DNA of 64,000 nucleotides, from the NCBI GenBank assembly GCA_910586895.1, contig CAJUIW010000002.1, forward strand, positions 19,837 through 83,836, written 5' to 3'. A model generated the notes under the pieces. That model was not told where the DNA came from, searched no databases, and worked only from the letters and a program-made list of their open reading frames with translations. This document shows positions 8,650 to 28,500 of this stretch, in pieces (position 1 is the stretch's first letter; the number at the start of each line of letters is the position of its first letter). Source of the DNA: an uncultured Muribaculaceae bacterium. Lineage in GTDB: Bacteria; Bacteroidota; Bacteroidia; Bacteroidales; Muribaculaceae. A program made the position numbers and the translations under genes.

Positions 8650-8667
8650 GTCATATACCGACGGTAA

Positions 8668-12822: not shown

Positions 12823-12829
12823 ATTGGAG

Positions 12830-13150
12830 ATGGCAAAGAACACTATGGGGACAAAGATGCCCCGAAAGCTGGAGCAGAAAATGGCGATTATGGGTGAGCA
12901 GATAAAGCTTGCCCGCCTTCGCCGCAACCTGTCGATAGCTCAGGTTGCGGAGCGGGCAACGTGCTCACCCCTGACGATTAACCGCATTGAAAAAGGTTCT
13001 CCGACTGTTTCAATCGGAATCTATGCCCGCGTGCTCTATGCTCTCCAACTCGAAGATGATCTTCTGCTGATAGCTAAAGACGACCCTCTCGGTCGTACCT
13101 TGCAAGACTTAAACTTAAAGCACAGGCAAAGAGCCTCAAAAAAAGAATAA
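12830..13150 (+). CDS. hipB: XRE-family HTH antitoxin (HipB-like)
   Basis: Cro/C1-type HTH (IKLARLRRNLSIAQVAERATCSPLTINRIEKG). It ends 4 nt before the hipA-like gene. The start is uncertain (TTG 12824, ATG 12830 or later Met codons). Confidence 0.75.
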   Translation: MAKNTMGTKMPRKLEQKMAIMGEQIKLARLRRNLSIAQVAERATCSPLTINRIEKGSPTVSIGIYARVLYALQLEDDLLLIAKDDPLGRTLQDLNLKHRQRASKKE

Positions 13151-13153
13151 GCC

Positions 13154-14407
13154 ATGAAGAAGTTATTTGTTTATGCCGATTTTGATTGGCTTGATGCTCC
13201 TCGGTTGATTGGAGAATTGTCGTATGACTCGGTAAGGGGTGGCGAGACTTATGGCTTTGCTTTTGATAAAGAATGGCTTGCCAAATATCGTGATATTTTT
13301 CTGTCAGATGATTTGCAGAATTATTCGGGGCTTCAATATACGCGTCCCGGACACGATATTTTCTCGTGCTTTTCAGATGCACTGCCCGACCGTTGGGGGC
13401 GCACACTGTTGAATCGCAGGGAACAAATCACCGCGACAGATGAAAAACGGCCAGTTCGCCGGTTGACTTCATTTGACTATCTTATCGGCATTGATGATGC
13501 TTCACGAATGGGAGGCTTCCGTTTTGCGGAAAATCGAGATGGGAAATTCATAAATTGCGAGGAATCTTTGCGCGTGCCCCCATTGGCAAACGTAAGGGAG
13601 TTGATGCACGCCGCACATGAAATTGAGGCGAGCGAAGAGAAACATATTTTACCGGAGAAGAAATGGATAATACAGCTTCTCCACCCCGGCACGTCTTTAG
13701 GCGGCGCCCGCCCCAAGGCTTCTGTGATTGACGAAGACGGCAGGTTGACCATAGCAAAATTTCCTTCAAGGAAAGATGATTACGATGTAGCTTTGTGGGA
13801 ACATTTCTGTCACGTCATGGCCAAGAAAGCGGGTATAAATGTGGCGGAGACACGGACTATCATGGGTGAGGAATACCACATTCTTCTTTCCAAACGGTTC
13901 GACCGCGACGGGAGTGGGAAGAGAATACATTTTGCCTCAGCGTTAACACTCCTCGGATTGACAGATGGTGACAACGCATCAAATGGGTATGGTTATCCGG
14001 ACATCGTTGACTTCATATTGAGAAATGGGACTGATGTAGAGCAAAATCTCGAAGAGCTTTATCGCCGCGTTGTATTCAACATCATCGTCGGCAACTCTGA
14101 CGACCACTTCCGAAACCACGGTTTTCTGTTGACACGAAAGGGTTGGATTCTTTCTCCGGCATACGACATAAATCCAACCCTCGCCGAAGAACAGAGCTTG
14201 CTCATAAACCGCACTACAAACCTCTCAGACCTGAATATTCTGATGGAATCAGCCGAAGAGTATATGTTGCAGGATGAGAGAGCGAAGTCAATCATAAATG
14301 AAGTCAAAACCGCAATGAACCCATGGCGCACTGTCGCCGGTAAAATCGGCATACCCCAACGCGACATCGAAATGTTTGCGCCAAGGATAGATAAATGGTT
14401 GGAATAA
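13154..14407 (+). CDS. hipA: type II toxin-antitoxin system HipA-family serine/threonine kinase toxin
   Basis: 417 aa. HipA N-terminal coupling region, P-loop-like SLGGARPKASV, catalytic GNSDDHFRNHGFL, PAYDINP. Confidence 0.9.
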   Translation: MKKLFVYADFDWLDAPRLIGELSYDSVRGGETYGFAFDKEWLAKYRDIFLSDDLQNYSGLQYTRPGHDIFSCFSDALPDRWGRTLLNRREQITATDEKRPVRRLTSFDYLIGIDDASRMGGFRFAENRDGKFINCEESLRVPPLANVRELMHAAHEIEASEEKHILPEKKWIIQLLHPGTSLGGARPKASVIDEDGRLTIAKFPSRKDDYDVALWEHFCHVMAKKAGINVAETRTIMGEEYHILLSKRFDRDGSGKRIHFASALTLLGLTDGDNASNGYGYPDIVDFILRNGTDVEQNLEELYRRVVFNIIVGNSDDHFRNHGFLLTRKGWILSPAYDINPTLAEEQSLLINRTTNLSDLNILMESAEEYMLQDERAKSIINEVKTAMNPWRTVAGKIGIPQRDIEMFAPRIDKWLE

Positions 14408-14427
14408 ATCACATTAAACAAAATCAG

Positions 14428-14467
14428 ACCTGCCCGCCGCCGATATGTTAATCGACAGCGGGCAGGT
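14428..14467. terminator. hairpin between convergent hipA and the MIPS gene (probable bidirectional terminator)
   Basis: ACCTGCCCGC ... GCGGGCAGGT: 10-bp GC-rich stem with a 20-nt loop, followed by GTTATTT. Confidence 0.55.
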
Positions 14468-14501
14468 GTTATTTCAGTCTTATGCTGCTTCGCGGAGAGG
14501 A

Positions 14502-15809
14502 TCAGTCGATCTCTTCGTCAGCCTCATAACCACCCATCTCGCGGATGGCGTTCTTGAGCATGGTGTACTGCTTGAAGAGGTGGTTGACGGGCACTTCACC
14601 CTTGGTGTAGTCGTGCATGGGGCTCTTGAGGAAGAAGCTCAGGAAGCGCTGGATGCCGTAGCGGCCGTCGCGAGCGGCGAGGTCGCTGAGAAGAACGAGG
14701 TCAAGGCAGAGGGGAGCTGCGAGGATAGAGTCGCGGCAGAGGAAGTTGATCTTGATCTGCATGGGATAGCCCATCCAGCCGAAGATGTCGATGTTGTCCC
14801 AGCCTTCCTTGTTGTCGTTGCGCGGGGGATAGTAGTTGATACGTACCTTGTGGTAGTAGTTGGTGTAGAGGTCGGGCTGTTCTTCGGGAACCAGGATTGA
14901 TTCAAGTGTTGAGAGCTTTGAAACCTCCTTGGTGCGGAAGTTGGCGGGTTCGTCAAGAACGAGACCGTCACGGTTGCCGAGGATGTTGGTTGAGAACCAT
15001 CCGCTCAGACCGAGGCAGCGTGTGCCGATGATGGGAGCGAAACCTGACTTAACAAGTGTCTGACCTGTCTTGAAGTCCTTACCGGCGATAGGCATGCCAG
15101 TCTTTTCGCTGAGTTCCCACATAGCGGGGATGTCAACGGTGGTGTTGGGAGCACCCATGATGAAAGGAGCGCCTTCCTGAAGAGCTGCGTAAGCGTAGCA
15201 CATTGAGGGAGCAATGTGTTCCTTGTCGTCAGCCTTCATAGCTGCTTCAAGAGCTTCTACTGTGCCGTGGATCTGCTCGTCGACGGGTACGTATACTTCG
15301 GTTGAAGCGGCCCAGAGTACTACTACGCGGTCAAGGCCGTTTTCTTTCTTGAAGTTGCGGATATCCTCGCGGAGCTGTTCAGCCATTTCCCAACGGGTCT
15401 TGCCTACCATGATGTTGTCACCGTCAAGACGCTTTGCATAGTTGTGGTCAAAAGCGGCTTTGAGGGGCTTGATGGCTTCGAGTTCGTCCTTAACGGGGTT
15501 GATGTCCTTTTCCTTAAGAACTTCAGCGTTGATAGCGCTTTCGTAAGCGTTTTCAGGATATACGTCCCATGCGCCGAACACGATGTCGTTGAGGTCAGCG
15601 ATAGGAGCTATTTCGTTATATTTCAGATACTTTTTGTCGGCACCTTTTCCAACACGGATTTTGTCATATTGGGTCATTGAACCAACAGGCTTTGCAAGGC
15701 CTTTGCGGGCCATGAGCACGCCGGTCATGAAAGTGGTAGTTACGGCGCCGAGGCCTACTACAAGAACACCAAGTTTACCTTCTGCAGGTTTAACGTTTGT
15801 TTTGTTCAT
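14502..15809 (-). CDS. ino1: myo-inositol-1-phosphate (inositol-3-phosphate) synthase (MIPS)
   Basis: 435 aa. NAD-binding N-terminus (GVLVVGLGAVTTT) and MIPS signature regions (NILGNRDG, conserved C-terminal tetramerisation/catalytic block). Confidence 0.93.
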   Translation of the reverse strand: MNKTNVKPAEGKLGVLVVGLGAVTTTFMTGVLMARKGLAKPVGSMTQYDKIRVGKGADKKYLKYNEIAPIADLNDIVFGAWDVYPENAYESAINAEVLKEKDINPVKDELEAIKPLKAAFDHNYAKRLDGDNIMVGKTRWEMAEQLREDIRNFKKENGLDRVVVLWAASTEVYVPVDEQIHGTVEALEAAMKADDKEHIAPSMCYAYAALQEGAPFIMGAPNTTVDIPAMWELSEKTGMPIAGKDFKTGQTLVKSGFAPIIGTRCLGLSGWFSTNILGNRDGLVLDEPANFRTKEVSKLSTLESILVPEEQPDLYTNYYHKVRINYYPPRNDNKEGWDNIDIFGWMGYPMQIKINFLCRDSILAAPLCLDLVLLSDLAARDGRYGIQRFLSFFLKSPMHDYTKGEVPVNHLFKQYTMLKNAIREMGGYEADEEID

Positions 15810-16055
15810 GATAATCTTTGGGTTATTGATATTATGTTCTTATTTTCAGTGGCTTTTCCGGTGTATTTCATATGGTGTGACGCCAATGGAACACACATTT
15901 TTGGGAAATGCGTGTAAAAGTACATGTAATTTTTGAAATGCAAAATTATTTCTAATTTAATATTCGCTTATTTTTGCTAAAATATATCAAAAATATGTGT
16001 GAATAGTAAATTTAGGTTAATTTTAGTCGATTTTAATTATTTATGTGTTAACGCA

Positions 16056-16763
16056 TCAAAATGCTACGTCAAGCAGTTCGGCCAGATTTTTAATTATGGA
16101 CGGGTGCATGACGCTGTCTTCATCCTCAGTCCATCCTTTTCCTTTGAGCCATGCTGTGCGGCAGCCTATGGTTTCGGCCGGGATAATATCCTTTTTATAG
16201 CTGTCGCCTACCACGAGCACATTTTCAGGCTTCATGCCGAGAGCCTCCACCCCAAGGCGGAAAATCTGCGGGTCAGGTTTTCTGACGCCCACCACCGCAC
16301 TCTCTATTATGGCCTTGAAGTAGCGCCGCAGGTCAAAGTCAGTGAGTACCGCCTCCACATTGCCGTAGAAGTTTGACACGAGCACCATAGGGTAGCGTTC
16401 GGAAAGTTGTTCGAGTACCGGACGTGCCTCTTCTATGCAGCATCGCGCTCGGTCATAGCAGTAGTCGGCCACCGGGCCGGCGAATTTTGCAGCAGCTTCT
16501 TCCGGTATGATTCTCTGTTCAACAAGCCGGCCAAACTCAATGCGCATCTTTATCACCAGAAGGTCATGGAAGTTATGGTGGGGAAGTATATGGCGTGTGC
16601 GGGCCAGCTCGCGCTCAGCGTAGACGTATGCCTCGCGGAATTGCTCCTTGTCCACCGGCACGCCGCATGACTGATAGCCGTCCCATATTACTTCGCTCCA
16701 GTGCACGCCACGGCTGTCGATTGTGCCGCCGTAGTCAAATATGATACCGGTTATTTTCTCCAT
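16056..16763 (-). CDS. HAD-superfamily hydrolase (subfamily IA-like)
   Basis: Motif I IIFDYGGTID, motif II VSNF, motif III K (VRKPDP), motif IV VVGDSYKKDI. The motif-I +2 position is Gly rather than Asp. Confidence 0.8.
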   Translation of the reverse strand: MEKITGIIFDYGGTIDSRGVHWSEVIWDGYQSCGVPVDKEQFREAYVYAERELARTRHILPHHNFHDLLVIKMRIEFGRLVEQRIIPEEAAAKFAGPVADYCYDRARCCIEEARPVLEQLSERYPMVLVSNFYGNVEAVLTDFDLRRYFKAIIESAVVGVRKPDPQIFRLGVEALGMKPENVLVVGDSYKKDIIPAETIGCRTAWLKGKGWTEDEDSVMHPSIIKNLAELLDVAF

Positions 16764-16802
16764 GGTGATATGAATGTTTTTCGTGGTTGGTATATCTGTA
16801 GT

Positions 16803-17771
16803 TCAGAATTTTCCCTCCTTAAGCTCGGCGGTAAGGTCACGGCATAAACTTTCATGCCGGCTCACCATGTAGAGCAGCAGTATATTGAGCACTGTCAGCT
16901 CGAAGGCGAAGTAAAGCCATGGCATCTGAAGGAACAGGGATGCAAACAGGGCTATGGTGCGCCAGTTGAAAGAGAGGATATTGGTATATTTCATCAGCGG
17001 CAGACTCTTGCGGCGGAACGCATCGCGGAAGCTCTGCGGTATGTTGCCGTCAGGAAAACGGCGGCGCAGTTCGGCACGCAGTGTCTGCATGCTGCGTGAG
17101 AACACCTCCTGATTGGCTGTGTAGTTGGCGTATACTTTGAGAGTTATCTTGCGCCAGAAGTTGCCTCGCCATGGTATCTCACGGTTGCGTGCCCGCAGTT
17201 CGTCGCATGTGTCAAGCTCACTCCCCTCCTTGCCTTTGAGGAAGTAGAGATGAAACTGGCGGTAGTAATCGGCCATTGCAGCCTGCTTGGCATGGCATAT
17301 ACCGGTTATGACGGCCATGACCCATATGGCCCATTTGTGGGCTTCGAAGAATTCGGAGGTATGCACTTCGCGCAGACATATGGCTACATAGATGGTGGCA
17401 AACCATATATCGCCGCTTAGTCCGTCAAGTATGCGGCCTATGCGGGAGTATTGGTGAGTCATGCGCGCAAGCTGTCCGTCGGCGCTGTCAAATGAATTGG
17501 CCCATATCAGGAGCAGCATGCCTGCTATATTGATAAGCATGTTGTCGAAATAGAATGCTACTCCGGCACCGATGCCCAGGAATATCGATGCTATGGTTAT
17601 GGCATTGGGCGTCACGCCGAGTTTTTTGGCCAGACAGGCCCAGAACCAACCTATACGGCGGTAGAATATCAGGTCGATACCCTCTTCCGTATCAAGCGTT
17701 TTCAGCGACTGCTGGTAAGCATCCGAGGCTGATGTTGTATGGTTTATGTCGGGTTCTTCTTGTTTCATCAA
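16803..17771 (-). CDS. CDP-alcohol phosphatidyltransferase family protein (second copy in locus)
   Basis: 322 aa polytopic protein with DSADGQLAR-x8-GRILDGLSGD. This is the CDP-alcohol transferase signature with the last Asp displaced by one residue. Confidence 0.8.
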   Translation of the reverse strand: MMKQEEPDINHTTSASDAYQQSLKTLDTEEGIDLIFYRRIGWFWACLAKKLGVTPNAITIASIFLGIGAGVAFYFDNMLINIAGMLLLIWANSFDSADGQLARMTHQYSRIGRILDGLSGDIWFATIYVAICLREVHTSEFFEAHKWAIWVMAVITGICHAKQAAMADYYRQFHLYFLKGKEGSELDTCDELRARNREIPWRGNFWRKITLKVYANYTANQEVFSRSMQTLRAELRRRFPDGNIPQSFRDAFRRKSLPLMKYTNILSFNWRTIALFASLFLQMPWLYFAFELTVLNILLLYMVSRHESLCRDLTAELKEGKF

Positions 17772-18622
17772 TGGTACATTTCACGGAGTGCGTATGTTCG
17801 TTCGCGCAGGAATTGACCCAGCTCTTCGGGAGATGCGCTGTGTGCGGCCTGCTCCTCTACGGATATGGGCTGCCCAACGCTGACGTGTATCTCTTTGCCC
17901 ACTTTGCGCCACACCTCGGCGGGCAGGCGCAGTGAACGTCCCGGCCAGAAGGCATGTCCGAGGAAGTTGAACCACCAGCTGTTGCTGCCATGGAAGAATA
18001 TCGGTATCACAGGTACCTTGGCACGCTGTATTATCTGCAGGATGGTAGGCTGCCATTCGCGGTCAACGAGGCGGCCGCGCCAGTTTGTCTTGCTCATGGC
18101 TCCGGCGGGGAAAAATCCTACAGGCTCGCCGTTCTTGAGCATACGGATGGCCTGACGGATGCCGTTGACCGATACCTGACGCTTCTTCGGGTCCTGACTT
18201 GACCATGCATCCACAGCTATGAAGTTGGGGCGCATGGCGGTAATCTGGTTCAGAATCATATTGACCATCACGCGGAATTCCGGCCGGCGTGAGGCTATCA
18301 GGTGTATCAGTGTTATGCCGTCCAAAGCGCCGAACGGATGATTGCTGACGGTGATGAAAGCACCTTCAGGCAGGTGGTCGAGCACATCCTGTCCGTCAAT
18401 GCGGAGCTTGATATGGAATTCCTCGAAGAGAAGGCGGCGCACGAATTCCGGTCCGGGAGTGTCGCAGCATTTGGCATGAACAGCGTTGACTTTGTCAACG
18501 GAGAGGAAATGCAGAAGCCAGTTGACGAGCTTTTCGTGGCCGTCAAGTTTCGGGACCATCCGGCGTATATCATCATAGTTGAGTACGTCGGGGCGTATTT
18601 CGTTGTTTTGATCTTCAGCCAT
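17768..18622 (-). CDS. lysophospholipid acyltransferase (LPLAT/PlsC-like) family protein
   Basis: NHPFGALDG (H..D catalytic block), VGFFPAGAMS block. ATGA-type overlaps on both sides. Confidence 0.8.
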   Translation of the reverse strand: MAEDQNNEIRPDVLNYDDIRRMVPKLDGHEKLVNWLLHFLSVDKVNAVHAKCCDTPGPEFVRRLLFEEFHIKLRIDGQDVLDHLPEGAFITVSNHPFGALDGITLIHLIASRRPEFRVMVNMILNQITAMRPNFIAVDAWSSQDPKKRQVSVNGIRQAIRMLKNGEPVGFFPAGAMSKTNWRGRLVDREWQPTILQIIQRAKVPVIPIFFHGSNSWWFNFLGHAFWPGRSLRLPAEVWRKVGKEIHVSVGQPISVEEQAAHSASPEELGQFLRERTYALREMYH

Positions 18623-19565
18623 TTATATAATCGGTATATTTGTTTACGAATCGGTTGAATCCGGGTATCCGCATAAGCAGGTACTCAAATAAGGCATACC
18701 CTGTCAGGGCACATGCTATGCCGAGGAGCACATCTATTATATAGTGGTGCGATGTGTATACGGCAGTCAGCCATATACCCACGGTGATCACTGCAAGGGC
18801 TGTGATCCATGCGGCTCCGGTTCGGTAGCGCACGGCATAGAGCAGTGCTACAAGGGTGTAGGCCGAGTGGAGCGAGGGCACGGCGGCGAATATGTTGGAA
18901 TTGCGGGCGTACAGGCCGTCAAATACGTTCCAGCCTGTGATCTGCCCGAATGCAGCCAGGCCTGCCACCTCACCTTTGGTGCCGGGAATGGCCTCGAATC
19001 CATGTCCGGCCACATACCATGGTGGTGCCGCCGGATGAATATAGTAGCCGGCAAATCCTATCAGATTGACCAGCAGGAATACTATAGCGAAATGCAGATA
19101 TTCATTCCGCCTGCCCTTGAAATAGAGCCAGAGCCCGAATAATATCGGCACCGGAACCCAGCATAGGTAGAACACTCCGGCCAAGAAATCGGCTGCGGCA
19201 AAGGTATGGTGGGCAAAGAACTCGTTAGGTGTCAGCAGCCCCCACTGCTCCGTGTTGATTCCGAACAGGGCTTTCTCGGTATTGTAGAGACCTATGGTGT
19301 CAACCGGATTGACCGTATAGTTGGGGCACAGGTTCATCCAGTCATATGATATGCCGAAAAGAAAGAATGGTACCAGAGCCACGGTAAGCCTACGGGTGAC
19401 GCCCGAGGAGAAGAAGAGGGCCAGGATAAGCAGTGCCATGAACGTATGTTCAGGGCGGAAGCCTATGAACAGGGCTGTGACAACAAGCCATACCGCTAAT
19501 GCACCAACGCAGAGCAGGCTCTCACGCAGTGTGGCCCGGGTGGGTTGATGTTCTGTCATGTTCAT
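18615..19565 (-). CDS. PAP2-superfamily membrane protein, inositol-phosphoceramide-synthase-like
   Basis: 316 aa polytopic protein. PAP2 C2/C3-like motifs VPSLHSAY and YTSHHYIIDVLLG (AUR1/IPC-synthase-type H-H-x2-D). It is adjacent to the PIP synthase. Confidence 0.7.
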   Translation of the reverse strand: MNMTEHQPTRATLRESLLCVGALAVWLVVTALFIGFRPEHTFMALLILALFFSSGVTRRLTVALVPFFLFGISYDWMNLCPNYTVNPVDTIGLYNTEKALFGINTEQWGLLTPNEFFAHHTFAAADFLAGVFYLCWVPVPILFGLWLYFKGRRNEYLHFAIVFLLVNLIGFAGYYIHPAAPPWYVAGHGFEAIPGTKGEVAGLAAFGQITGWNVFDGLYARNSNIFAAVPSLHSAYTLVALLYAVRYRTGAAWITALAVITVGIWLTAVYTSHHYIIDVLLGIACALTGYALFEYLLMRIPGFNRFVNKYTDYING

Positions 19566-20254
19566 TTATTGCTGGCCTTGAGTATGCGTTTGCTGTAGTT
19601 TACGCGGGCAAATGCGGTGATGTTGGCGAACACGGCTATGAATCCCATGGCCACCATCAGTATCATGGCCGGGTCAAACTCCGCTCCGCACTGGCCTGTG
19701 ATACCGGTGGCAAGAGTGGCTATCGAGGTGATCACCACACGCTCCGGACGCTGCAGGAACCCGATTTTGCACTCTATGCCGAGACCTTCGGCACGGGCGC
19801 GCACATAGCTTACCATGATGCTGCCCACCAGCGCCAGGAATGTGACCAAGGCGCCAATGATGTGATCTGTCTGTATCAGGTAATATGATATGGCTCCGAG
19901 TGTGGCGAGCTCGCAGTAGCGGTCGAGCACGGAATCGTACATAGCTCCGAAAGTAGAGGCCATGTTGCCGAGGCGTGCCACCTGTCCGTCAAGCATGTCA
20001 AACAGAGAAAAGCCTATTATAAGCGCTCCACCCCATGTGAGCAGGCTCCAGTCAATGGTGCCGCTTATGCTGGCGTCGTAGCCGGCCCAGATAATTATTG
20101 CGGCGGCAGCCAGATTGCCTAACAGTCCTATGGTGGTGACTATGTTAGGGGTTATCTTCATTTTTATCAGAAGCCGTACAAAGGGATTGATCACGCAGTA
20201 GATGCCCTGCTGGAGGGAACCGCGGGTCTGAACAGCCGATTCTTTAATTTTCAT
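19562..20254 (-). CDS. CDP-diacylglycerol--inositol-3-phosphate 3-phosphatidyltransferase (PIP synthase) candidate
   Basis: Perfect CDP-alcohol signature DMLDGQVAR-x8-G-x3-D-x3-D. The start is trimmed to the ATG at 20254 (MKIKES..). Confidence 0.8.
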   Translation of the reverse strand: MKIKESAVQTRGSLQQGIYCVINPFVRLLIKMKITPNIVTTIGLLGNLAAAAIIIWAGYDASISGTIDWSLLTWGGALIIGFSLFDMLDGQVARLGNMASTFGAMYDSVLDRYCELATLGAISYYLIQTDHIIGALVTFLALVGSIMVSYVRARAEGLGIECKIGFLQRPERVVITSIATLATGITGQCGAEFDPAMILMVAMGFIAVFANITAFARVNYSKRILKASNK

Positions 20255-20801
20255 CTCTCTTATGTTTGTAAGTGAAAAGATTAACAAAGTTGATTGCCAC
20301 CTTGTCAAAGCGGGTGACGCTGTACACAAAGTAGCGCTGGAGCACGAAGTTCCAGAACCATGATACAAGCAGTGACACTATCAGACGGGCGGCGGCAAAG
20401 TAGCCGTCAGGACGGAAGCCTATTGTCTCGAGCCAGTGCCAGTTGTTGAGGATATGGTATAGCGCCTGTGTGCCGAACGAGTTGAGCAGAAGGCTTCCTA
20501 CCCATACCATGGCATATTTTACCGCCACGGCTTTCCAGGGGCAGTCCTTGGCATGGAATGTGAAGCGGTAGTTGATGATGCAGTTTATCACTCCGCCGAG
20601 CAGTGCTCCTATGGCTGTGGATAGCCATGGTGTGAGGCCCACCCATGCGAAGAGTGCGAATGCAGTAAAGAGGTCTGCCCACGATGCTGTCTGCGAGGAT
20701 ACGGCTGAGCGGAGAAACGAATAGATAAGTTTATCGCTCTTGATAATATCGGTTCCTACTTTCTTTATTTTATCCATATCACAGGCAGAAATAGTTGACA
20801 A
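20244..20801 (-). CDS. GtrA-like family membrane protein
   Basis: About 4 TM segments. Typical GtrA-like pattern (GGVINCIINYRFTFH .. WNFVLQRYFVY). The start is uncertain (20801 or 20777). Confidence 0.7.
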   Translation of the reverse strand: MSTISACDMDKIKKVGTDIIKSDKLIYSFLRSAVSSQTASWADLFTAFALFAWVGLTPWLSTAIGALLGGVINCIINYRFTFHAKDCPWKAVAVKYAMVWVGSLLLNSFGTQALYHILNNWHWLETIGFRPDGYFAAARLIVSLLVSWFWNFVLQRYFVYSVTRFDKVAINFVNLFTYKHKRDEN

Positions 20802-21297
20802 TAAGCAGTATCACCACGGAGTAGATGCCGGCCAATATGTCATCGGCCATCATTCCGTAGCCTCCGGGGAAGCGCTCCATGCTGCGGATGCCAAACGGTT
20901 TGTATATATCGAAGAATCTGAACAGCACGAGCGACAGCAGAATCTCCCACCATGGAGTGACGGCAATGCCTGACAGCGGCAGGAGCGATATCCACTGCCC
21001 TACCGTTTCGTCGGCGCACGCTATCACCGGATCCTTGCCCCAGTATTTTTCCGACTCTGAGCTTGCCCAGGTTCCGGCCACGGTGTAGACGGCGGCTGCG
21101 GTAAGCGTCACCCAGAATATCAGCGGCTGGCTTGCCCAGAAATAGAGCGGAAGCCACAGCAGTATGGCAAGCAGAGCTCCCCATGTGCCGGGTGCCACCG
21201 GAAGATACCCCACACCGAACGATGTGGCCAGCAGTCGTGGCAGCAGCGGGAACGGCTTGTCAGTTATAGGGACCGGACGTCGCGACTTGATTTTCAT
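20779..21297 (-). CDS. pgpA: PgpA-family phosphatidylglycerophosphatase A-like (candidate PIP phosphatase)
   Basis: FGVGYLPVAPGTWGAL .. FDIYKPFGIRSMERFPGGYGMMADDILAG: canonical PgpA motifs. Confidence 0.85.
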   Translation of the reverse strand: MKIKSRRPVPITDKPFPLLPRLLATSFGVGYLPVAPGTWGALLAILLWLPLYFWASQPLIFWVTLTAAAVYTVAGTWASSESEKYWGKDPVIACADETVGQWISLLPLSGIAVTPWWEILLSLVLFRFFDIYKPFGIRSMERFPGGYGMMADDILAGIYSVVILLIVNYFCL

Positions 21298-22169
21298 TAC
21301 TTCTTCTCGTTATGTTCCTTTATCAGGGTCATTATGCGCTTGGCTATGTGCGGGGCTGCCTCTACACGGCAAGGTGCGAAGCTGGGCCAGTCATTGAAGT
21401 CAATGATCTGTATCTCGCCTGTTTCCGATACGATACAGTCGCCTCCGTAGATTATGATATCCACTTCATCGGCGGCTTTCTGGCACATCTTCTTCAGGCT
21501 GTCAAGGTCAAAATGAAAGCCTGTGGAGTGACCGTTTATGCGCTCCATGCCGTATTTTGACTGTCCGTTGTCAAAGGGGTAGAACCAGTAGAAAAACTGT
21601 GTTCCGCGCACACCGTAGAATTTGATCAGGTCGCCCGGCAGATGGCGGTTAATTACGGCTCGCTTTATCCCGCGCATGAAATACTCCTGAAGCACCTCCT
21701 GAGCTTCTTCGGGGTGGCGGGCATAGCTCACATCCTCCTTGTGCATGGCGTGGCTGTCGCCGCGCTTTATCCAGCAGTTGGTGAAGCGTGCGTTGATCAG
21801 TTTGTCGCGCACTACCTCGTCAGTGTTTACCACGAGGCTTTCCGGATAGGGTATGCCTGAACCTACAAGTATGCGTGTCATGCGTTCGCGGGTGCAGTTC
21901 TCTATGCCGTAGCCTGAGTTGATTACCAGGGCGCCGGCATCCTCCAGTTGCTGGAGCTTGTCGATAGAGCCCTGCTCACGGCACATGTTGACTATGATAT
22001 TCTCCTGTACTTTTCCGGCCATCAGCTGCTCTTCACTGTAGACAGTCACCTGAGCTCCGCGTTTGCGCAGCTGCTCGGCCACTAAATTGAAAATGGCGGC
22101 GTCGTTGCCGATATGGTTAGGTGAATATGCGCCGGCACGCATTACGCCGGCTATGTTTATCTCAGCCAT
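21297..22169 (-). CDS. ATP-grasp-fold enzyme of unknown substrate
   Basis: C-terminal ATP-grasp Mg/ATP block (IIIYGGDCIVSETGEIQIIDFNDWPSF) and a central CWIKRGDSHAMHKEDV strand-loop. No specific family was recognised. Confidence 0.6.
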   Translation of the reverse strand: MAEINIAGVMRAGAYSPNHIGNDAAIFNLVAEQLRKRGAQVTVYSEEQLMAGKVQENIIVNMCREQGSIDKLQQLEDAGALVINSGYGIENCTRERMTRILVGSGIPYPESLVVNTDEVVRDKLINARFTNCWIKRGDSHAMHKEDVSYARHPEEAQEVLQEYFMRGIKRAVINRHLPGDLIKFYGVRGTQFFYWFYPFDNGQSKYGMERINGHSTGFHFDLDSLKKMCQKAADEVDIIIYGGDCIVSETGEIQIIDFNDWPSFAPCRVEAAPHIAKRIMTLIKEHNEKK

Positions 22170-22881
22170 TTGATTCGTTGGTTAAAAGCCTGTTGGCTGT
22201 TTCTATATCATGTTGGTGATCCACATCGATGATTTTGCCCATGGGCCATGCGCGCAGGTTGAGTCCGCATGCCACAAGACGGCGCTGGAAATTGCGCATG
22301 CGGCTTATCCCCTCTTCCATGCAGCGGTCAAGCACTTCCGTGGCCTTTGGCGACAGTGCGTATATGCCGCCTGAAATGTACTTGGTCGACGCGTCGGGTG
22401 CATCAAGGAATGCGGTTATGCGGTCATTTGCATCAGTGTCCACATACAGGGGCTTTTCATCGTCAATGAATGTGGTTACGGCCATATATCCGTCGGAAGT
22501 GGTATCGGCCTCGAATGCAGCTATGAATTCCCTGAAGCGGGCGGGGTGGAAAATGGTGTCGACTGTGGTGAGGCAGAAGCGCTCCCCTTTCGGCAGGATG
22601 CGGGTAAGCTCATGGAAGCTGTGCATGGAGCTTGGGGTTGACTTCACGCAGAGGCGCAGCTCCACAGGGAGTGTGGGGGCAAGCTCTTCGAGGTATCTTC
22701 TCACTTCGGTCATCTGCTCGTTGACAATGACGCTTATGGTCGTGGCATTGCAGCTGATGAATATATCTATCAGCCGCTTTATCATAGGCTTGCCGTCGAT
22801 TTCCACAAGCGGTTTCGGCAGACTCACACCCTCCTGCTGCAGCCGGGAGCCTTCACCGGCAGCTATAATGCCGTAGTTCAT
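22162..22881 (-). CDS. NTP-transferase (sugar/alcohol-phosphate nucleotidylyltransferase) family protein
   Basis: N-terminal GIIAAGEGSRL .. PKPLVEIDGKPMI signature of nucleotidylyltransferases (IPCT/LicC-like). Confidence 0.8.
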   Translation of the reverse strand: MNYGIIAAGEGSRLQQEGVSLPKPLVEIDGKPMIKRLIDIFISCNATTISVIVNEQMTEVRRYLEELAPTLPVELRLCVKSTPSSMHSFHELTRILPKGERFCLTTVDTIFHPARFREFIAAFEADTTSDGYMAVTTFIDDEKPLYVDTDANDRITAFLDAPDASTKYISGGIYALSPKATEVLDRCMEEGISRMRNFQRRLVACGLNLRAWPMGKIIDVDHQHDIETANRLLTNESNG

Positions 22882-23987
22882 TGGTCGGAATCGGTTTCGT
22901 TGAGGTTAAGCACCACATTGTCATTCTTGCTCTTTTCGTAATACTGCTTGCGGAGCGGATTGCGATGGGCCGAGCGGTGGCGGCGGCGGTTGCGCAGAAT
23001 GTCGATTGCTGAATATATGGCCTGACGCATTGATTCGGCATCGGCTACTCCTTTTCCGGCTATGTCAAATGCAGTGCCGTGGTCAGGCGAGGTGCGCACG
23101 TAGTCAAGTCCGGCAGTGAAGTTGACCCCTTCGTTCATGGCAAGGGCCTTGAAAGGGGCAAGCCCCTGGTCGTGGTACATGGCCAGAACGCCGTCAAACT
23201 TGTTGAACAGCCCGTTGCCGAAGAATCCGTCGGCCGCATACGGACCGAAACAGTTGATTTTCTTCTCACGTGCTTTCTCTATTGCCGGTGTTATGATTTC
23301 TTTCTCTTCGCTGCCGAGCAGTCCCTCCTCACCGGCATGCGGATTGAGTGCCAGAACGGCTATACGGGGGTGCGGAAGAGCAAAGTCCTTTTCCAGCGAC
23401 TCGGCAAGGCTCTCAATCTTGGCAAGAATTCCATCGGTAGTGAGCATCGACGGTACACGTGCTATGGGTACATGCGTTGTGGCGAGGGCCACGCGCATAT
23501 TGTCGGAGCATAGTATCATCAGCGCATGATCATTGCCGTTGTCGGAGAGAGATGCCTCGAGGTACTCGGTGTGGCCGGGGAAAGTGAAACGGTCGCTCTG
23601 TATGGTGTGCTTGTCAATCGGGGCTGTCACCAGCAGGTCGATATTACCTTGGCGCAGGTCGGCCACGGCACGTTCAAGAGCGCAGAAAGCAGCTTCGCCG
23701 GCGGCACGTGATGCCACCCCGGGCTCCACTTTCACATCCTCGCCCACTACGTTGATTATGTTGTATTCACCTATGCGCGCGTCAGCACCCGAGTTGACCT
23801 GGTTGAGGGGGAACTGTGCTATGCCGAGGTTCTTGCGGTAAAAAGCCGCTATTTTTGCCGAGCCGTAGATTATTGGGGTGCACAGCTCAAGTATGCGGTT
23901 GTCTTCTAATGCTTTAAGGATTACTTCGTAGCCTATTCCGTTGATATCGCCCTGAGTTATCCCTACTTTTATGCGGTTGTCTGCCAT
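22878..23987 (-). CDS. pdxA: 4-hydroxythreonine-4-phosphate dehydrogenase
   Basis: 369 aa. GDINGIGYEV, TTHVPI, HGTAFDIAGKGVA motifs. Confidence 0.93.
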   Translation of the reverse strand: MADNRIKVGITQGDINGIGYEVILKALEDNRILELCTPIIYGSAKIAAFYRKNLGIAQFPLNQVNSGADARIGEYNIINVVGEDVKVEPGVASRAAGEAAFCALERAVADLRQGNIDLLVTAPIDKHTIQSDRFTFPGHTEYLEASLSDNGNDHALMILCSDNMRVALATTHVPIARVPSMLTTDGILAKIESLAESLEKDFALPHPRIAVLALNPHAGEEGLLGSEEKEIITPAIEKAREKKINCFGPYAADGFFGNGLFNKFDGVLAMYHDQGLAPFKALAMNEGVNFTAGLDYVRTSPDHGTAFDIAGKGVADAESMRQAIYSAIDILRNRRRHRSAHRNPLRKQYYEKSKNDNVVLNLNETDSDQ

Positions 23988-24044
23988 TTGTTATATGATG
24001 AAAGTACACATTAAGCCTAATGTGTGCGCTAAATTACATATTTT

Positions 24045-24989
24045 TCAGCATTCCACCAATTTTTCCTCTATGAGGCGGATGGCATTGCGGCGCAGTCCGT
24101 CGAGCTTGGCGCGCTTCATCGGGCTGCGGCGGAATAGGCGGGTGTACTCCTCGGTGTCCATTGACATGATCTGTTGGGCCGATATGTCAAGCAGTGCCGG
24201 GCGCGGAGTGAATTCCGGTAGAGTGGTGTATGCCGGATGTGAGTTGTGGGGACACACTTCCGAGCAGCGGTCGCATCCGTAGAGACATCCTTGTAGCCGG
24301 GGTTCCGACGGTAGCGGTCCGCGGTGTTCTATGGTGAGGTATGACAGACAGCGGCGTGCGTCAAACGGATGGGAGGATGACAATGCTCCTCCGGGGCATG
24401 CCTCAATGCAACGCCGGCATGAGCCGCATGGGTTACCCGGCAGGGGAGAGGTAGGGGTGAAGCGTACCGTGGTCAGAATCTCTGCAAGAAAACAGTATGT
24501 ACCGGCTCCGGGAACGATTATCTGACCGGAACGTCCCTGACGTCCTACACCTGCGCGTATGGCCCAGTAGCGTTCATGGATAGGTGCCGTATCTACACAT
24601 ATGCGTGTCGCTCCTCCGGAGCGCTTCTCAATGGCTTCGGCCACTGCTTTCAAGCGCTTGCGAACCACGTCGTGATAGTCATCGCCCAAGGCATATGAGG
24701 CTATGCGTGCCGCCGGGTTTATTCTCCGGCTGTCAGGGTGACGGTAGGGGATGGCTATGCTGATTACGGAGCTTGTGCCGTCAAGCAGAAGCCGCGGGTC
24801 GGCTCTCAGCTCCTCGTGGCGGTCAAGGTAGTCCATGTCGGCGTGGTAGCCTTCGGCTATCCATCGGAGATAGGCGGAGTGGACCGCTTCATCCACAGGT
24901 ACGGCATCGGCTACTCCCCACCGTATGGCTCCGGCTTCGTTGAGAAGTTGCTGAAATTCAATGTCAGCGGGGAATGGTATGGAATTCAT
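24045..24989 (-). CDS. queG: tRNA epoxyqueuosine(34) reductase
   Basis: 314 aa. 4Fe-4S ferredoxin motifs CGSCRRCIEACP and CDRCSEVCP, with QueG-like N-terminal and HEAT-like C-terminal regions. Confidence 0.9.
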   Translation of the reverse strand: MNSIPFPADIEFQQLLNEAGAIRWGVADAVPVDEAVHSAYLRWIAEGYHADMDYLDRHEELRADPRLLLDGTSSVISIAIPYRHPDSRRINPAARIASYALGDDYHDVVRKRLKAVAEAIEKRSGGATRICVDTAPIHERYWAIRAGVGRQGRSGQIIVPGAGTYCFLAEILTTVRFTPTSPLPGNPCGSCRRCIEACPGGALSSSHPFDARRCLSYLTIEHRGPLPSEPRLQGCLYGCDRCSEVCPHNSHPAYTTLPEFTPRPALLDISAQQIMSMDTEEYTRLFRRSPMKRAKLDGLRRNAIRLIEEKLVEC

Positions 24990-25581
24990 AGCCGTTTTGC
25001 AGAAGCCATTCTATGGCACGCGGCAATGCGTAGCGCAGGTTACGTTCAGCTTTCAGGGAGTCGTGAAATACTATGATGGAGCCGTTGCGCACATAGTGTT
25101 TCACATTGCGCAGCACCTGTTCCGGCGTCAGTTTGCGGGAGTAGTCGCGTGTCACGAGGTCATACATCACTATGTTGTAGTGATTCTTGATGGCCTTGGC
25201 CTGTGCCCAGCGGATAAGTCCGTGGGGCGGACGGAACAGTGAGCTGTCAATCAGCGCATCGGCTTCAGTGATGTCGCGCATGTAGCGCACGGTTGACACC
25301 AGGCGTCCCTGCATGTGGTGCATGGTGTGGTTGCCGTAGCTGTGTCCGCGGCGGCGCACCTCTTCAAGCAGTTCGGGGTGGCGGCGTACATTGTCGCCCA
25401 CCATGAAGAATGTGGCTTTCACGCCGTAGCGGTCAAGCATGTCAAGAACCCACGGCGTCACTTCCGGAATGGGGCCGTCGTCGAAGGTCAGATATATCGC
25501 TTTCCGGCCGCGCTGTTTTATGCGCCATATTGCCTCGGGGAAGAGGAGCCGGTAAGCGAGTGGGGGCTGCTCAATCAGCAT
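24964..25581 (-). CDS. polysaccharide deacetylase (NodB homology domain) family protein
   Basis: LTFDDGP, HSYGNHTMHH, RPPHG motifs. Confidence 0.85.
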   Translation of the reverse strand: MLIEQPPLAYRLLFPEAIWRIKQRGRKAIYLTFDDGPIPEVTPWVLDMLDRYGVKATFFMVGDNVRRHPELLEEVRRRGHSYGNHTMHHMQGRLVSTVRYMRDITEADALIDSSLFRPPHGLIRWAQAKAIKNHYNIVMYDLVTRDYSRKLTPEQVLRNVKHYVRNGSIIVFHDSLKAERNLRYALPRAIEWLLQNGYEFHTIPR

Positions 25582-28500
25582 TACTGCTTCTTGGTGGCAG
25601 CCTCGTAGAGGCTTTGTGAGCGTTCGATGTTCACACCCTTGGCCTGTATCTCCTCAAGGAGCTTGGCAGTGTCGCCACCGTCATTATGATATGTCTGTAT
25701 CATATCCATGAAGAAGTAGGTGTCAATGGCATGATCCGTGCGGGTCAGTGTGGCGTAGAGGCGGGGCGACAGGCTCTGGTAGTACTTGACATTGTCGGCA
25801 TATCGCAGTACCTCGTTGCGCAGTATCTCAAGGCCTTTCTCGGAAGCTTTCTTGTCGTTGGTGGCGACACCGATGCGGCAGTAGAGGTCGCCTGTGTCCT
25901 GCCCTACTGAAAGTGAGAGCGGCATTGCCTCAACAGGAAGCTTGGTAAGCATAAGGTCGAGTACCTCACGGGCTTTCTTGAAGCGGTCAGCCGCATAGTC
26001 GGCCGACGACGAATCGCGTGCGGCGATACCTTCGTTGAACAGAGCTGTGGCAAGGTCGAGCATTGCGCTGCGGTGGGTCACTACCATACGGCGCACGGTT
26101 TCATCAAGATATATCTGACCAGGTGCGGTGACTTTGTCAAGTCCTCCCCAGCGGAAGCGTTCGGTCATGTTGCGGTACATCTTGTCGGTGTTGACCGAGG
26201 GATAGCCCGAAGCGTTGAGTTTCGGAGTCACTTCATAGGTCAGACCTGTGTTGTGCATGTAGGGGCTGAGGCCTATGTAGTATTCATCCGGAACAGTTAT
26301 AGCGAAGTAAACCGGACGGTTCCAGCCGTTCTTGGCTGAAGATGCGAGCATGTCAAGTGCCAGGATGCTGCTCAGGCGGAGTCCGCGCTGTGCCATAACT
26401 CTATCATCGGCCAGCAGATTGAGGTCCATCGTGTCGGATGTCATGGCGGCATCCTCGGCGGTGATACGGCCGCTCTTCACTGCCTGCTGGAGATTGACAG
26501 GTATGTACATGTTGGGCTTCTGCACCAGGGGTGCGCCGAATATATGGTTGTTCTTGCCGGAATAGATCTCGGCAAGGCTCTCAAGCACGCTTGTGCGTGA
26601 GCTGTCCGGCTCGAAGAAGTAGGCGAACTGGAGGCGGTCATATGCATAGTCCGAAGGCTTGGCAAGCATATCTATGCCAGGAGCTTCATAAGAGGGCCGG
26701 CGCACCTGATCGGCATACCAGTCGGTGGTCAGATAGCTGAGGTTGACCACCTTGACATCTGTGCGAGTGCCTTCAACCTCCTGTGCATACCAGAGAGGGA
26801 ATGTGTCGTTGTCACCGTTGGTGAACACTATGGCGTTTTCGTCAAGGCTGTTCAGGTAGTTCTGTCCGAAGTCACGTGCGGTGTATCGTCCTGAGCGGTC
26901 ATGGTCGTCCCATGTCTGCGATACCACCTGCAGCGGAACCAGGATGCCTATGATAGCGGCTACTACAGCTCCTATGGCCGACATGCGGCGGCTGCGGGGT
27001 GTGGACGGTTCTTCGCTTGTGGCGTTGGTTGCGGTTGTCTTGCTCTTCTGCTTGGTGGCAGCCACGAACAGGCGCCACAGGCCAGCGACGCCCATACCTA
27101 CCCATATGGCATAGGCATAGAACGAACCTGCAAATGCGTAGTCACGTTCGCGCGGCTGGGTGGGAGTCTGGTTGAGGTAGAGCACAATGGCTATACCGGT
27201 CATGAAGAAGAGGAAGAATATTACCCAGAATTGCTCGATGCCGCGCTTTGAGGTGAATGCCTGCCAGAGGAGGCCTATGATACCGAGCAGAAGCGGGAGC
27301 ATGAAGAAAACGTTGTGGCCGGCGTTGCCTTTGCCCATTTCGTCAGGCAGAAGGCTCTGGTCGCCCAGTCGGGGATTGTCGATGAACGGAATGCCTGATA
27401 TCCAGTTGCCGTGGTTCACTTCACCATTGCCCTGGATGTCGTTCTGACGTCCGGCGAAGTTCCACATGAAGTAGCGCCAGTACATATGGTTGAGCTGATA
27501 AGTCACCAGATATGTAAGGTTCTCGGCCATAGTGGGCTTGATGCGTGTGGTGCGCTGGTAGACGTTGCCGTCGGGTGTCACATATTGGGTGGCTTCCACA
27601 GGCTTGCCGCGTAGTCCGCCTATCCATCCGGAATAGTCGGCGGCATGTGCGCTGGAATAGATGCGGGGGAACACCATGTTCAGCTCCGGCATCATTTCAT
27701 ACTCCTTTTTGTAGCCGGTGTTGATATACTTGTCGGGTTCTGACTCAGACTCTTTCACCTGACGGGCGTAGAGGGCGTGCCCTTCATGGACCACAGGTGT
27801 GGTAGTGCCGTCGGAACCAACTTCGTAGACAGGTGATGAGTTGAACGTTTCGCCGTAGAACAGCGGACGGTCGCCGTACTGCTCGCGGTTGAGGTATGAA
27901 CTGAGTGCGAATACATTGTCAGGGGCATTCTGATTCATCGGGGTGTGGGCGCTTGAGCGGATGAGCAGAAGCGCGTAGGATGAATAGCCGGCAAATATCA
28001 CCAGTATGCTGATGGCCACAAGGTTCAGTATACGTATCGGGAGCTTCTTGGCCATGAAGAGCCATGCTCCGAGTGCGGCCATGATAAGCAGCGGTATAAG
28101 CAGGTTGTCGCCGATGAAGGGTATGCCTGACAGCAGTACGCTGAGCAGGAATGACACGCGGATTGCAGTGACATTGCGCTGTGCATAGAGTGAGTGGATG
28201 CACCATATCAACGAGGCTACAAGCAGTGTGGCATAGATCAGTACGCCCACGTTGAATGACATGCCTAATACGTTGACACAGAACAGTTCGAAATACTGAG
28301 ACACCTCAATGAATCCGGGCACCAGTCCGTAAAGAATAAGTCCTACAATGACGAATGACACCAGCAGGGCTATCAGTGAGCCTTTGGCTGTGGTATTTTT
28401 CCATTTCTTGTAGTAGATGACCAGAACTATGGCCGGAATACAGAGCAGGTTGAGCAGGTGCACCGCGATTGAGATGCCTATGATGTAGGCTATGAATATC

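Follow-up and report, generated by a model that had tools for sequence, protein, structure and literature searches.

A putative composite inositol-lipid locus of a Muribaculaceae bacterium, with one gene module nested within another

The eleven-gene unit

The window analyzed here is a stretch of 64,000 nucleotides (nt) from an uncultured Muribaculaceae bacterium (GenBank assembly GCA_910586895.1, contig CAJUIW010000002.1, positions 19,837 to 83,836). Its minus strand carries a unit of eleven genes, which extends from pdxA, starting at 23987, to the gene of a myo-inositol-phosphate synthase (MIPS), ending at 14502. In reading order, the unit encodes PdxA, a nucleoside triphosphate (NTP) transferase, an ATP-grasp protein, a PgpA-family phosphatase, a GtrA-like membrane protein, a phosphatidylinositol phosphate (PIP) synthase-type enzyme (PIPS), a PAP2/AUR1-like protein, an LPLAT-type acyltransferase, a second CDP-alcohol phosphotransferase (CDP2), a HAD hydrolase, and MIPS. 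Judged by gene content and order, this unit is likely to be a composite inositol-lipid locus, in which a module of the Bacteroides thetaiotaomicron type (BT-type; PgpA, GtrA-like, PIPS, and PAP2) and LPLAT are nested within the putative alternative module (NTP transferase, ATP-grasp, CDP2, and HAD) with MIPS directly downstream, and which would work through the steps proposed in the Discussion. Our confidence in the composite identity of the locus is high; the specific routes assigned to the alternative module are tentative.

All eleven open reading frames (ORFs) were found at the coordinates given in the initial annotation, which had been made from the letters alone. An independent gene caller made the same calls on public contigs that are 98% identical to the window, with starts agreeing with those used here. 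These contigs, from the runs SRR28467954 to SRR28467971, show 97.4–97.9% DNA identity to the window across the locus, and all eleven genes are also intact in the two longest of them (L081 and L082).

Reading of the junctions bore out the overlaps and gaps described before, apart from one overlap and one gap length. The genes overlap by 4 nt (ATGA) at pdxA/NTP, 8 nt at NTP/ATP-grasp, 1 nt at ATP-grasp/PgpA, 11 nt at GtrA/PIPS, 4 nt at PIPS/PAP2, and 8 nt at PAP2/LPLAT. The 23-nt overlap claimed for PgpA/GtrA arises solely with an upstream TTG start; the gene callers chose the ATG at 20777 instead, which leaves a 1-nt spacer between the two genes. LPLAT and CDP2 overlap by 1 nt with an ATG start and by 4 nt with the TTG start preferred earlier. 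A 39-nt gap separates CDP2 and HAD, and an AT-rich gap of 246 nt, formerly counted as 245, lies between HAD and MIPS. The two 8-nt overlaps (22162–22169 and 18615–18622) have the identical sequence ATGGCTGA, and the proteins downstream of them, ATP-grasp and LPLAT, both start with MAE, probably a coincidence of overlap design. Start/stop overlaps as such are ordinary in operons. The gene packing is more than chance, because synteny is kept in genomes whose proteins are just 54–68% identical and because members of the unit are fused to one another elsewhere.

Domains were assigned with Pfam and NCBIfam; the ATP-grasp protein, which has no Pfam match, was confirmed by its fold alone. MIPS (14502..15809; all coordinates of the unit refer to the minus strand) was assigned through its near-identical counterpart in L081, which has the Pfam domains NAD_binding_5 and Inos-1-P_synth. 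The protein is 83–93% identical to the MIPS of 80 Bacteroidales species representatives, mostly metagenome-assembled genomes (MAGs) of Muribaculaceae, and this similarity assigns the window to the same family.

The BT-type module

In B. thetaiotaomicron, BT_1522, BT_1523, BT_1525, and BT_1526 have been characterized, and a BT_1524 knockout had no lipid phenotype (Heaver 2022, PMC9246714). The PgpA-family phosphatase of the window (20779..21297; Pfam PgpA, 135.6 bits) is a candidate BT_1525-type phosphatase of phosphatidylinositol phosphate diacylglycerol (PIP-DAG), and its position in the module is kept in six related loci (L007, L022, L029, L031, L041, and L054). The BT_1524-type GtrA-like small membrane protein (20244..20777; Pfam GtrA_DPMS_TM, 44.3 bits) begins at the same ATG (20777) as its counterpart in L081. 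For PIPS, a CDP-alcohol phosphatidyltransferase of the BT_1523 type (19562..20254), the best NCBIfam match is NF052561 (PIPSynBT1523) with 270.6 bits (cut-off 350); PIPSynth gives 127.5 bits (cut-off 170). The "perfect signature" ascribed to this enzyme in the initial annotation was confirmed: the motif DX2DGX2AR-X8-GX3DX3D is intact, and it is canonical in all 11 homologues. The PAP2/AUR1-like protein (18615..19565; Pfam PAP2_3), a BT_1522-type phosphoinositol dihydroceramide (PI-DHC) synthase, scores 486.6 bits against NF052609 (PhinosDhcerSyn), above the equivalog cut-off of 480, and the catalytic motifs PSLH and SHHYIID are visible in its sequence. With this score, the BT_1523-type best match and faultless motif of PIPS, and the PgpA, GtrA-like, and MIPS genes, the B. 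thetaiotaomicron-type core claimed for the locus is present.

MIPS, PIPS, PgpA, GtrA-like, and PAP2 are all found in the window as in BT_1522–BT_1526, and the order PgpA-GtrA-PIPS-PAP2 is that of other Bacteroidales BT-type loci. In contrast to BT_1522–BT_1526, the MIPS gene of the window is not located beside PgpA, since LPLAT, CDP2, and HAD separate it from the module. Further differences are the embedding of the module in another cluster, the accompanying LPLAT and ATP-grasp genes, and a PIPS that scores under the BT_1523 cut-off.

The alternative module

A putative alternative cluster of the B. vulgatus type consists of an NTP transferase, a CDP-alcohol phosphatidyltransferase, and a HAD hydrolase (BVU_RS13095/13105/13115; PMC9246714). 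Species with MIPS were said to have "one of two clusters" (Heaver 2022, PMC9246714). In Supplementary Table 5 of that study (PMC9246714), Prevotella buccalis, P. timonensis, and P. brevis match both sets, which is left uncommented, and no Muribaculaceae are included; an ATP-grasp protein or an acyltransferase is not mentioned (Heaver 2022, PMC9246714). The window shares with the B. vulgatus-type cluster the three enzyme families, their order, and the adjacency to MIPS. The orthology of the window genes rests on this architecture and on related Phocaeicola/Bacteroides MAGs, whose loci L052, L064, and L034 have NTP, CDP2, and HAD in the same order at 44–57% identity. The window differs from the B. 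vulgatus-type cluster by the BT-type module inserted between ATP-grasp and the transferase. The five additional enzymes of the initial annotation are accordingly present as genes, but they do not amount to a hitherto unknown expansion: NTP, CDP2, and HAD represent the published alternative cluster, ATP-grasp occupies the unnamed slot of that cluster, and pdxA is most likely a housekeeping gene.

The soluble NTP transferase (22162..22881; Pfam NTP_transf_3 and NTP_transferase) is by family a generic sugar-phosphate nucleotidylyltransferase and a candidate CTP:inositol-phosphate cytidylyltransferase. Its match to the archaeal IPCT/DIPPS model NF041135 spans the full length but is weak (30.6 bits, E 1.7e-7, cut-off 580). 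In the near-identical strain contig L083 (2063–2781), the gene is broken into ORFs of 119 and 107 amino acids (aa), either by a frameshift, possibly reflecting pseudogenization of the alternative route in this strain, or by an assembly error.

CDP2 (16803..17768; Pfam CDP-OH_P_transf, 48 bits, over the cut-off), the hub enzyme of the alternative module, is a protein distinct from PIPS and longer. It reaches 27.1 bits against NF041135 (cut-off 580), and its closest solved structures are AF2299 (E 1.4e-5) and IPCT/DIPPS (4mnd). In its motif, DSADGQLAR-X8-GRILD-GLSG-D, one extra residue turns the final D-X3-D into D-X4-D; the same spacing at the end of the CDP-alcohol signature was found in all 27 CDP2 homologues with the motif. 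The hydrophobic segments at its N- and C-termini are separated by a hydrophilic stretch of approximately 110 residues.

The third enzyme (16056..16763; Pfam Hydrolase and HAD_2) is a HAD-IA hydrolase and a probable phosphatase with an atypical motif I. It scores 23.3 bits against Pfam PGP_phosphatase, a mitochondrial family, over the cut-off of 20.4. In 24 of 25 homologues, motif I reads FD(Y/F)GGT, in which the nucleophilic Asp is kept and the Asp at position +2 is replaced by Gly; motifs II (LVSNF), III (RKPDP), and IV (GDSxxKD) are canonical.

The archaeal enzymes IPCT/DIPPS (4mnd) and AF2299 (4o6m) share with this module the succession of MIPS, cytidylyltransferase, CDP-alcohol phosphotransferase, and phosphatase. 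However, the window proteins fall outside the IPCT/DIPPS family (27–31 bits against a cut-off of 580). NTP and CDP2 are separate in the window, and fusions of NTP-CDP2 and NTP-ATPgrasp-CDP2 occur in relatives. CDP2 has the large hydrophilic insertion and the D-X4-D spacing, the ATP-grasp and flippase-like partners have no counterpart in IPCT/DIPPS, and in Bacteroidetes a lipid rather than a solute is the presumed product.

The ATP-grasp protein

The orphan ATP-grasp protein (21297..22169), assigned by fold, appears from its genomic setting to be an integral and overlooked core part of the alternative module, in spite of lacking a Pfam family. Every alternative cluster examined, the Phocaeicola/Bacteroides-type loci L052, L064, and L034 included, has the ATP-grasp gene at the same place, after NTP and before the transferase. 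It is this conserved position, together with the natural fusions described below, that places ATP-grasp in the alternative pathway. In comparison with the published three-enzyme scheme, the window and every related cluster examined add ATP-grasp between NTP and the transferase, fused in some lineages, so that the scheme would be short of at least one ATP-dependent step.

Pfam assigned no family to the protein at E<0.01, and sub-threshold matches occurred in distant members only. NCBIfam matches were weak (MptN, 34 bits with a cut-off of 350; also RimK and LysX). Homologues are numerous (5703 detectable), and every named one among the matches listed is termed "hypothetical". A first AlphaFold2 model, based on a shallow alignment, had a mean pLDDT of 67.5 and gave a mixed Foldseek list including inositol-phosphate kinases. 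A second model, built from a more diverse alignment that included domains of fused proteins, reached a pLDDT of 91.8 and a pTM of 0.88; its best Foldseek matches were Ddl, ArgX/LysX, RimK, PsnB, and DcsG (E approximately 1e-12 to 1e-13, TM 0.67–0.75). In the alignment of the second model (32–87% identity to the window protein), K135, K183, D244, D257, and N259 are invariant; the wider alignment A2 has two BT-type sequences with Glu in place of D244. The protein is, on this conservation, probably an active ATP-dependent enzyme, and the predicted fold makes ligase-type chemistry more likely than that of a kinase. An ITPK1-like inositol-phosphate kinase had been considered because ITPK1 and Vip1 were among the top matches of the first model and a profile search returned Entamoeba ITPK1 (E 0.018). 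This assignment was dropped as the preferred one, as ITPK1 is absent from the Foldseek top 50 of the second model. A modification of the acidic C-terminal tail of MIPS in the manner of RimK/LysX found no support either, since the tail GGYxADExID is kept with or without a nearby ATP-grasp gene.

With the ATP-grasp ligases (ArgX/LysX, RimK, MptN, D-Ala:D-Ala, and D-Ala:D-lactate ligases), the window protein shares the three-domain fold, the ATP-binding Lys, and the D...D-x-N metal ligands. It differs from them in that it is only 11–18% identical to any solved structure, reaches no Pfam or NCBIfam family, and has Asp as both metal-binding acids; an inositol-lipid genomic and fusion context like that of the window protein is found in no characterized member. 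Two subtypes were distinguished. The loop HSKYGxExINGxxxGxxFD (residues 203–221; 21506–21562 of the window) is kept in alternative and fused clusters, and an unrelated shorter sequence replaces it in L004, L005, L015, L019, L054, and L066. The loop-less clusters lack NTP and carry the BT-type module only, LPLAT-CDP2 only, or nothing else. In the fused clusters L007, L029, and L031, NTP is likewise missing from the neighborhood, yet L031 keeps the loop, which may be a partner- or substrate-recognition element.

Natural fusions among the alternative-module proteins

A search with CDP2 against 1.84 billion representative proteins yielded 2167 relatives, several of which carry extra domains. CDP2 was found fused to NTP (P0125), to ATP-grasp (P0122, P0138, and P0145; P0129 in part), to both in an NTP-ATPgrasp-CDP2 triple fusion of 818 aa (P0128), to HAD (P0132 and P0133, as published for P. 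veroralis), and to LPG_synthase_TM (P0158, P0159, and P0263, the last by length and sequence only). The fusions are not considered assembly accidents, because full-length copies from NCBI, JGI, ENA, and Logan are among the 31 members of the triple-fusion cluster.

The most condensed arrangement was detected in a Bacteroidales MAG (L085/L086), where an LPG_synthase_TM-HAD fusion and MIPS come, in this order, after the triple fusion. In L085 (8001–13354; GCA_017647105.1), these adjacent genes encode proteins of 814, 565, and 387 aa, the last being a short MIPS. Here, the whole alternative pathway is packed into two polypeptides plus MIPS. A TetR-family gene is located approximately 1 kb upstream of this condensed locus. 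LPG_synthase_TM is the lipid-flippase domain of MprF. In the Bacteroidaceae/Prevotella version of the cluster, an LPG_synthase_TM gene lies between the transferase and HAD, as in L052 and L064, whereas the window and the Muribaculaceae loci yielded no LPG_synthase_TM homologue. As Rosetta-stone evidence, the natural fusions speak strongly for a single membrane-associated pathway, fed by MIPS, in which NTP, ATP-grasp, CDP2, and HAD would act.

Comparative survey of MIPS loci

The survey covered 80 loci, chosen as those of the closest MIPS relatives and not as a random sample; classes were assigned to the 63 species loci in which the sequence upstream of MIPS extends over 6 kb or more. The alternative module alone, typically as pdxA-NTP-ATPgrasp-CDP2-HAD-MIPS, was present in 16 of the 63 loci and the BT-type module alone in five. 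Another five (L007, L022, L029, L031, and L041) contain both modules, three are partial, and in 34 none of these genes occurs within 10 kb. Synteny of the accessory genes with MIPS, a check named in the initial annotation, is thus found in related genomes.

Among the loci with both modules, L041 has the exact eleven-gene order of the window with all genes intact and 54–68% protein identity, and L022 differs from this order by the absence of LPLAT only. L007, L029, and L031 begin at ATP-grasp, with unrelated genes upstream in place of NTP and pdxA. ATP-grasp abuts CDP2 in the alternative-only loci, and the BT-type module lies between both in every fused locus. Shorter combinations include ATPgrasp-GtrA-PIPS-PAP2-MIPS (L005, L015, and L019), ATPgrasp-LPLAT-CDP2-(HAD)-MIPS (L004 and L026), and ATPgrasp-MIPS (L066). 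The rule that the alternative set is found instead of the BT-type cluster does not hold for the window and the five fused loci, where both sets form one chain. Neighbor-joining (NJ) trees of CDP2 and ATP-grasp, calculated without bootstrap and therefore indicative, placed the fused clusters in different clades and the window with the alternative-only loci L001 and L002. The fused state would accordingly have been assembled or lost repeatedly. In L052 (7440–9668), HAD and MIPS are separated by an MFS transporter gene and, on the opposite strand, a pfkB-family sugar kinase gene, which might serve in taking up or phosphorylating exogenous inositol.

LPLAT and pdxA

The LPLAT-type O-acyltransferase (17768..18622; Pfam Acyltransf_2, 92 bits) is a variable accessory, which is found in some cluster variants only and downstream of MIPS in L023. 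It is a paralogue of GlsA and of the N-terminal part of OlsF, the O-acyltransferases of Bacteroidetes aminolipids, with which it shares the Pfam family Acyltransf_2; both NCBIfam scores are under the cut-off (OlsF 133 bits; GlsA 121.6 bits, cut-off 260). GlsA/OlsF enzymes esterify the 3-hydroxyl group of an amide-linked 3-OH fatty acid, a structure also present in the dihydroceramides of Bacteroidetes. In the "substituted" phosphoglycerol dihydroceramide (PG-DHC) of Porphyromonas gingivalis, this 3-OH acyl structure is O-acylated (PMC5126122). Unlike GlsA, the window protein is located among inositol lipid genes and lacks an N-acyltransferase partner, and it reaches about half of the GlsA cut-off.

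The gene heading the overlap chain is pdxA (22878..23987), which encodes 4-hydroxythreonine-4-phosphate dehydrogenase (Pfam PdxA, 366 bits; TIGR00557, 369.9 bits with a cut-off of 290). A role of PdxA as a pathway enzyme was considered and rejected: the equivalog score is passed, pdxJ is close by, and pdxA also occurs beside BT-only or cluster-less MIPS regions, including upstream of those of L044 and L053, which have no alternative module. From its family and surroundings, pdxA is most likely a housekeeping neighbor.

Transcription signals and flanking regions

As a sigma-70 promoter scan is uninformative for Bacteroidetes, the −33/−7 pattern of this phylum was used. A Bacteroidetes-type MIPS promoter is predicted at 15915..15944 on the minus strand (−33 TTTG, an 18-nt spacer, and −7 TACTTTTA), at a distance of approximately 105 nt from the MIPS start. 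The minus strand has no other match to TTTG-N17-21-TAnnTTT[GA] from 14000 to 31500. The pattern was detected upstream of MIPS in 31 of 78 sequences (the window and 30 of 77 related loci), mostly 90–120 nt before the ATG. No terminator-like hairpin was found between HAD and MIPS, and an intrinsic-terminator-like hairpin (14428..14467, minus strand; 17-bp stem, 11 G-C pairs, T-rich tail) ends the unit 35 nt past the MIPS stop. A riboswitch or structured leader before MIPS was rejected, given that Rfam returned no match in the locus and the predicted 5′ leader folds no better than shuffled sequences (z −0.97).

Upstream, the same-strand run continues past pdxA through queG, a polysaccharide deacetylase, a TMEM260-like gene, YgjP, and NAD kinase to about 30808; pdxJ (31333–32046) is divergent. 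A −7-like box, TAACTTTG, precedes the TMEM260-like gene, and the upstream chain may be transcribed from it, judging by the sequence pattern. The TMEM260-like gene (25581–29036, minus strand) encodes a putative protein O-mannosyltransferase of 1151 aa, which is overlap-coupled to the deacetylase and queG; the block of these three genes is also located upstream of pdxA in L001. Within the 57-nt queG-pdxA spacer lies a perfect 8-bp inverted repeat (24006–24025, minus strand; ACACATTA-GGCT-TAATGTGT), which is followed by a −7-like TACTTTCA as a possible internal promoter or operator.

The contig L081 aligns to the window from 32169 down to 14501, and the alignments of L081–L083 all end at 14501, just past the MIPS stop. 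Immediately beyond this breakpoint, the window carries the terminator-like hairpin and a hipB/hipA-like toxin–antitoxin pair on the plus strand (12824–14407), with a GC content of 0.43–0.49 compared to about 0.55 in the flanks. L081–L083 carry EamA and fucosidase genes after MIPS in place of this pair, and the hipBA-like stretch looks like a strain-specific insertion or rearrangement. Farther away, between the genes of a Na:alanine symporter and a Na/H exchanger, a Bacteroidetes FopS small RNA (Rfam RF04319) was identified at 8582–8651 on the plus strand (69.8 bits, gathering score 56).

Discussion

In the mechanism proposed for the composite locus, MIPS would provide inositol phosphate, an assignment backed by strong homology. 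By homology to the characterized enzymes, PIPS would join CDP-DAG and inositol phosphate to PIP-DAG, PgpA would dephosphorylate this intermediate to phosphatidylinositol diacylglycerol (PI-DAG), and PAP2 would move the phosphoinositol group onto dihydroceramide to give PI-DHC. For the alternative module, the fusions and the analogy to IPCT/DIPPS suggest that the NTP transferase forms CDP-inositol. CDP2 might then use CDP-inositol as the donor and place phosphoinositol on a lipid alcohol, either dihydroceramide or DAG. This order of steps is drawn from the NTP-CDP2 fusion, which mirrors IPCT/DIPPS, and from AF2299 and IPCT/DIPPS being the best solved relatives of CDP2. PI-DHC has been detected in B. 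vulgatus and P. veroralis, species without the BT genes (PMC9246714), and since species with the alternative module alone make this lipid, the acceptor of CDP2 is most likely a lipid alcohol. HAD would carry out a step at the membrane beside CDP2, possibly on a phosphorylated headgroup, and ATP-grasp may contribute an additional ATP-dependent ligation or activation, physically coupled to CDP2. From the chemistry of its family, LPLAT, a candidate tailoring enzyme, would O-acylate a hydroxylated lipid, with dihydroceramide and its 3-OH acyl chain as a candidate target.

That both modules are maintained together suggests that they are complementary rather than redundant. With both routes, a ligase-like ATP-grasp protein, and an O-acyltransferase encoded at one locus, a more elaborate lipid is a plausible product. 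A more far-reaching reading, which we regard as unlikely, sees in the alternative pathway not the three-enzyme Kennedy-like route proposed before but an assembly line tethered to the membrane and built from as many as five domains (a cytidylyltransferase, a ligase-type ATP-grasp, a CDP-alcohol transferase, an atypical HAD, and a flippase-like domain). ATP-grasp would add or activate a group not found in known bacterial inositol lipids, for example a tRNA-independent aminoacyl or another carboxyl-linked decoration of the inositol headgroup; in the window, cooperation with the BT route and the O-acyltransferase would lead to an undescribed decorated or acylated inositol sphingolipid.

Several observations weigh against the composite pathway as proposed. 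PIPS stays under both of its NCBIfam cut-offs, the last acidic spacing of CDP2 is non-canonical, and in HAD the general acid that HAD phosphatases typically have as Asp+2 is missing. ATP-grasp, CDP2, and HAD are kept without an adjacent NTP gene in L007, L029, L031, L026, and L004, so that the CDP-inositol donor would have to come from elsewhere in these genomes, unless the assignment is mistaken. Finally, the occurrence of each module alone in many species and the polyphyly of the fused state also fit redundancy with frequent gain and loss.

Redundancy is the rival that survives best, though it has only a minor share of the probability. Both modules would then reach the same PI-DHC and PI-DAG and reside together through frequent gain and loss at a hotspot, with no new product. 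Single modules are indeed common (16 alternative-only and five BT-only among the 63 loci), PI-DHC occurs in species with either cluster (Heaver 2022), and the fused clusters are polyphyletic in the CDP2 and ATP-grasp trees, with the window beside alternative-only loci. The split NTP gene in the near-identical contig L083 would also agree with redundancy. However, the modules have remained intact and coupled between the window and L041 and L022 (the latter without LPLAT) at 54–68% protein identity, and the BT-type module always occupies the same internal position between ATP-grasp and CDP2. In addition, ATP-grasp joins BT-type modules even where CDP2 is missing (L005, L015, L019, and L054), which argues for an interaction across the two pathways.

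A product other than a lipid is quite improbable. NTP, ATP-grasp, CDP2, and HAD would in that case form a soluble or glycan-bound inositol phosphodiester, such as a solute resembling di-myo-inositol phosphate (DIP), made through a phosphorylated intermediate, or CDP-inositol for decoration of the capsule, and the lipids would come from the BT-type module only. Archaeal DIP synthesis relies on exactly the set of MIPS, cytidylyltransferase, CDP-alcohol transferase, and phosphatase, AF2299 and IPCT/DIPPS are nearest to CDP2 among solved structures, and both NTP and CDP2 weakly match the IPCT/DIPPS model, although with about 30 bits they are far under the cut-off of 580. Capsule inositol is dependent on MIPS (Heaver 2022, PMC9246714), but PI-DHC is still made by species that have the alternative module alone (Heaver 2022). 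Moreover, CDP2 and HAD are fused to a lipid-flippase domain in other lineages, and HAD passes the Pfam cut-off of a phosphatase family acting on the lipid headgroup of phosphatidylglycerophosphate (PGP). That the extra genes are merely housekeeping or generic phospholipid genes packed beside an inositol core is very improbable: it agrees with the housekeeping-type genes on the same strand (pdxA, queG, the deacetylase, and others upstream) and with the frequency of start/stop overlaps in compact genomes, but it is largely refuted for NTP, ATP-grasp, CDP2, and HAD, whose order beside MIPS is kept across Bacteroidales families and which are fused in several lineages, once directly before MIPS, and it is preferred for pdxA only.

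The composite inositol-lipid locus, which we continue to favor, is not a new kind of system, because both gene sets were already known. Literature searches for later work on the alternative pathway, on inositol lipids or sphingolipids of Muribaculaceae, and on ATP-grasp proteins in inositol clusters returned nothing relevant. Three findings have no precedent in the literature that could be searched. They are the nesting of two modules, which recurs in Muribaculaceae; the evidence that the alternative pathway includes an orphan ligase-like ATP-grasp protein as an integral member, joined in other lineages by a flippase-like domain; and the atypical catalytic motifs of the alternative HAD and transferase.

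The pathway of most Prevotella and of B. vulgatus/dorei has so far been a hypothesis only, for which the locus and its relatives give concrete handles. A key catalytic residue is missing from HAD, for which the role of a PI-DHC synthase or phosphatase had been proposed, and fusions tether it to the membrane in some lineages. For heterologous reconstitution, the condensed version in L085 (triple fusion, LPG_synthase_TM-HAD, and MIPS) would be an obvious minimal construct. The inositol lipids of gut Bacteroidetes affect the capsule, the resistance to antimicrobial peptides, and the fitness in the host (Heaver 2022, PMC9246714). In the Muribaculaceae, a dominant family of the mouse gut, the presence of both gene sets in one chain means that the two are probably not simple substitutes for each other.

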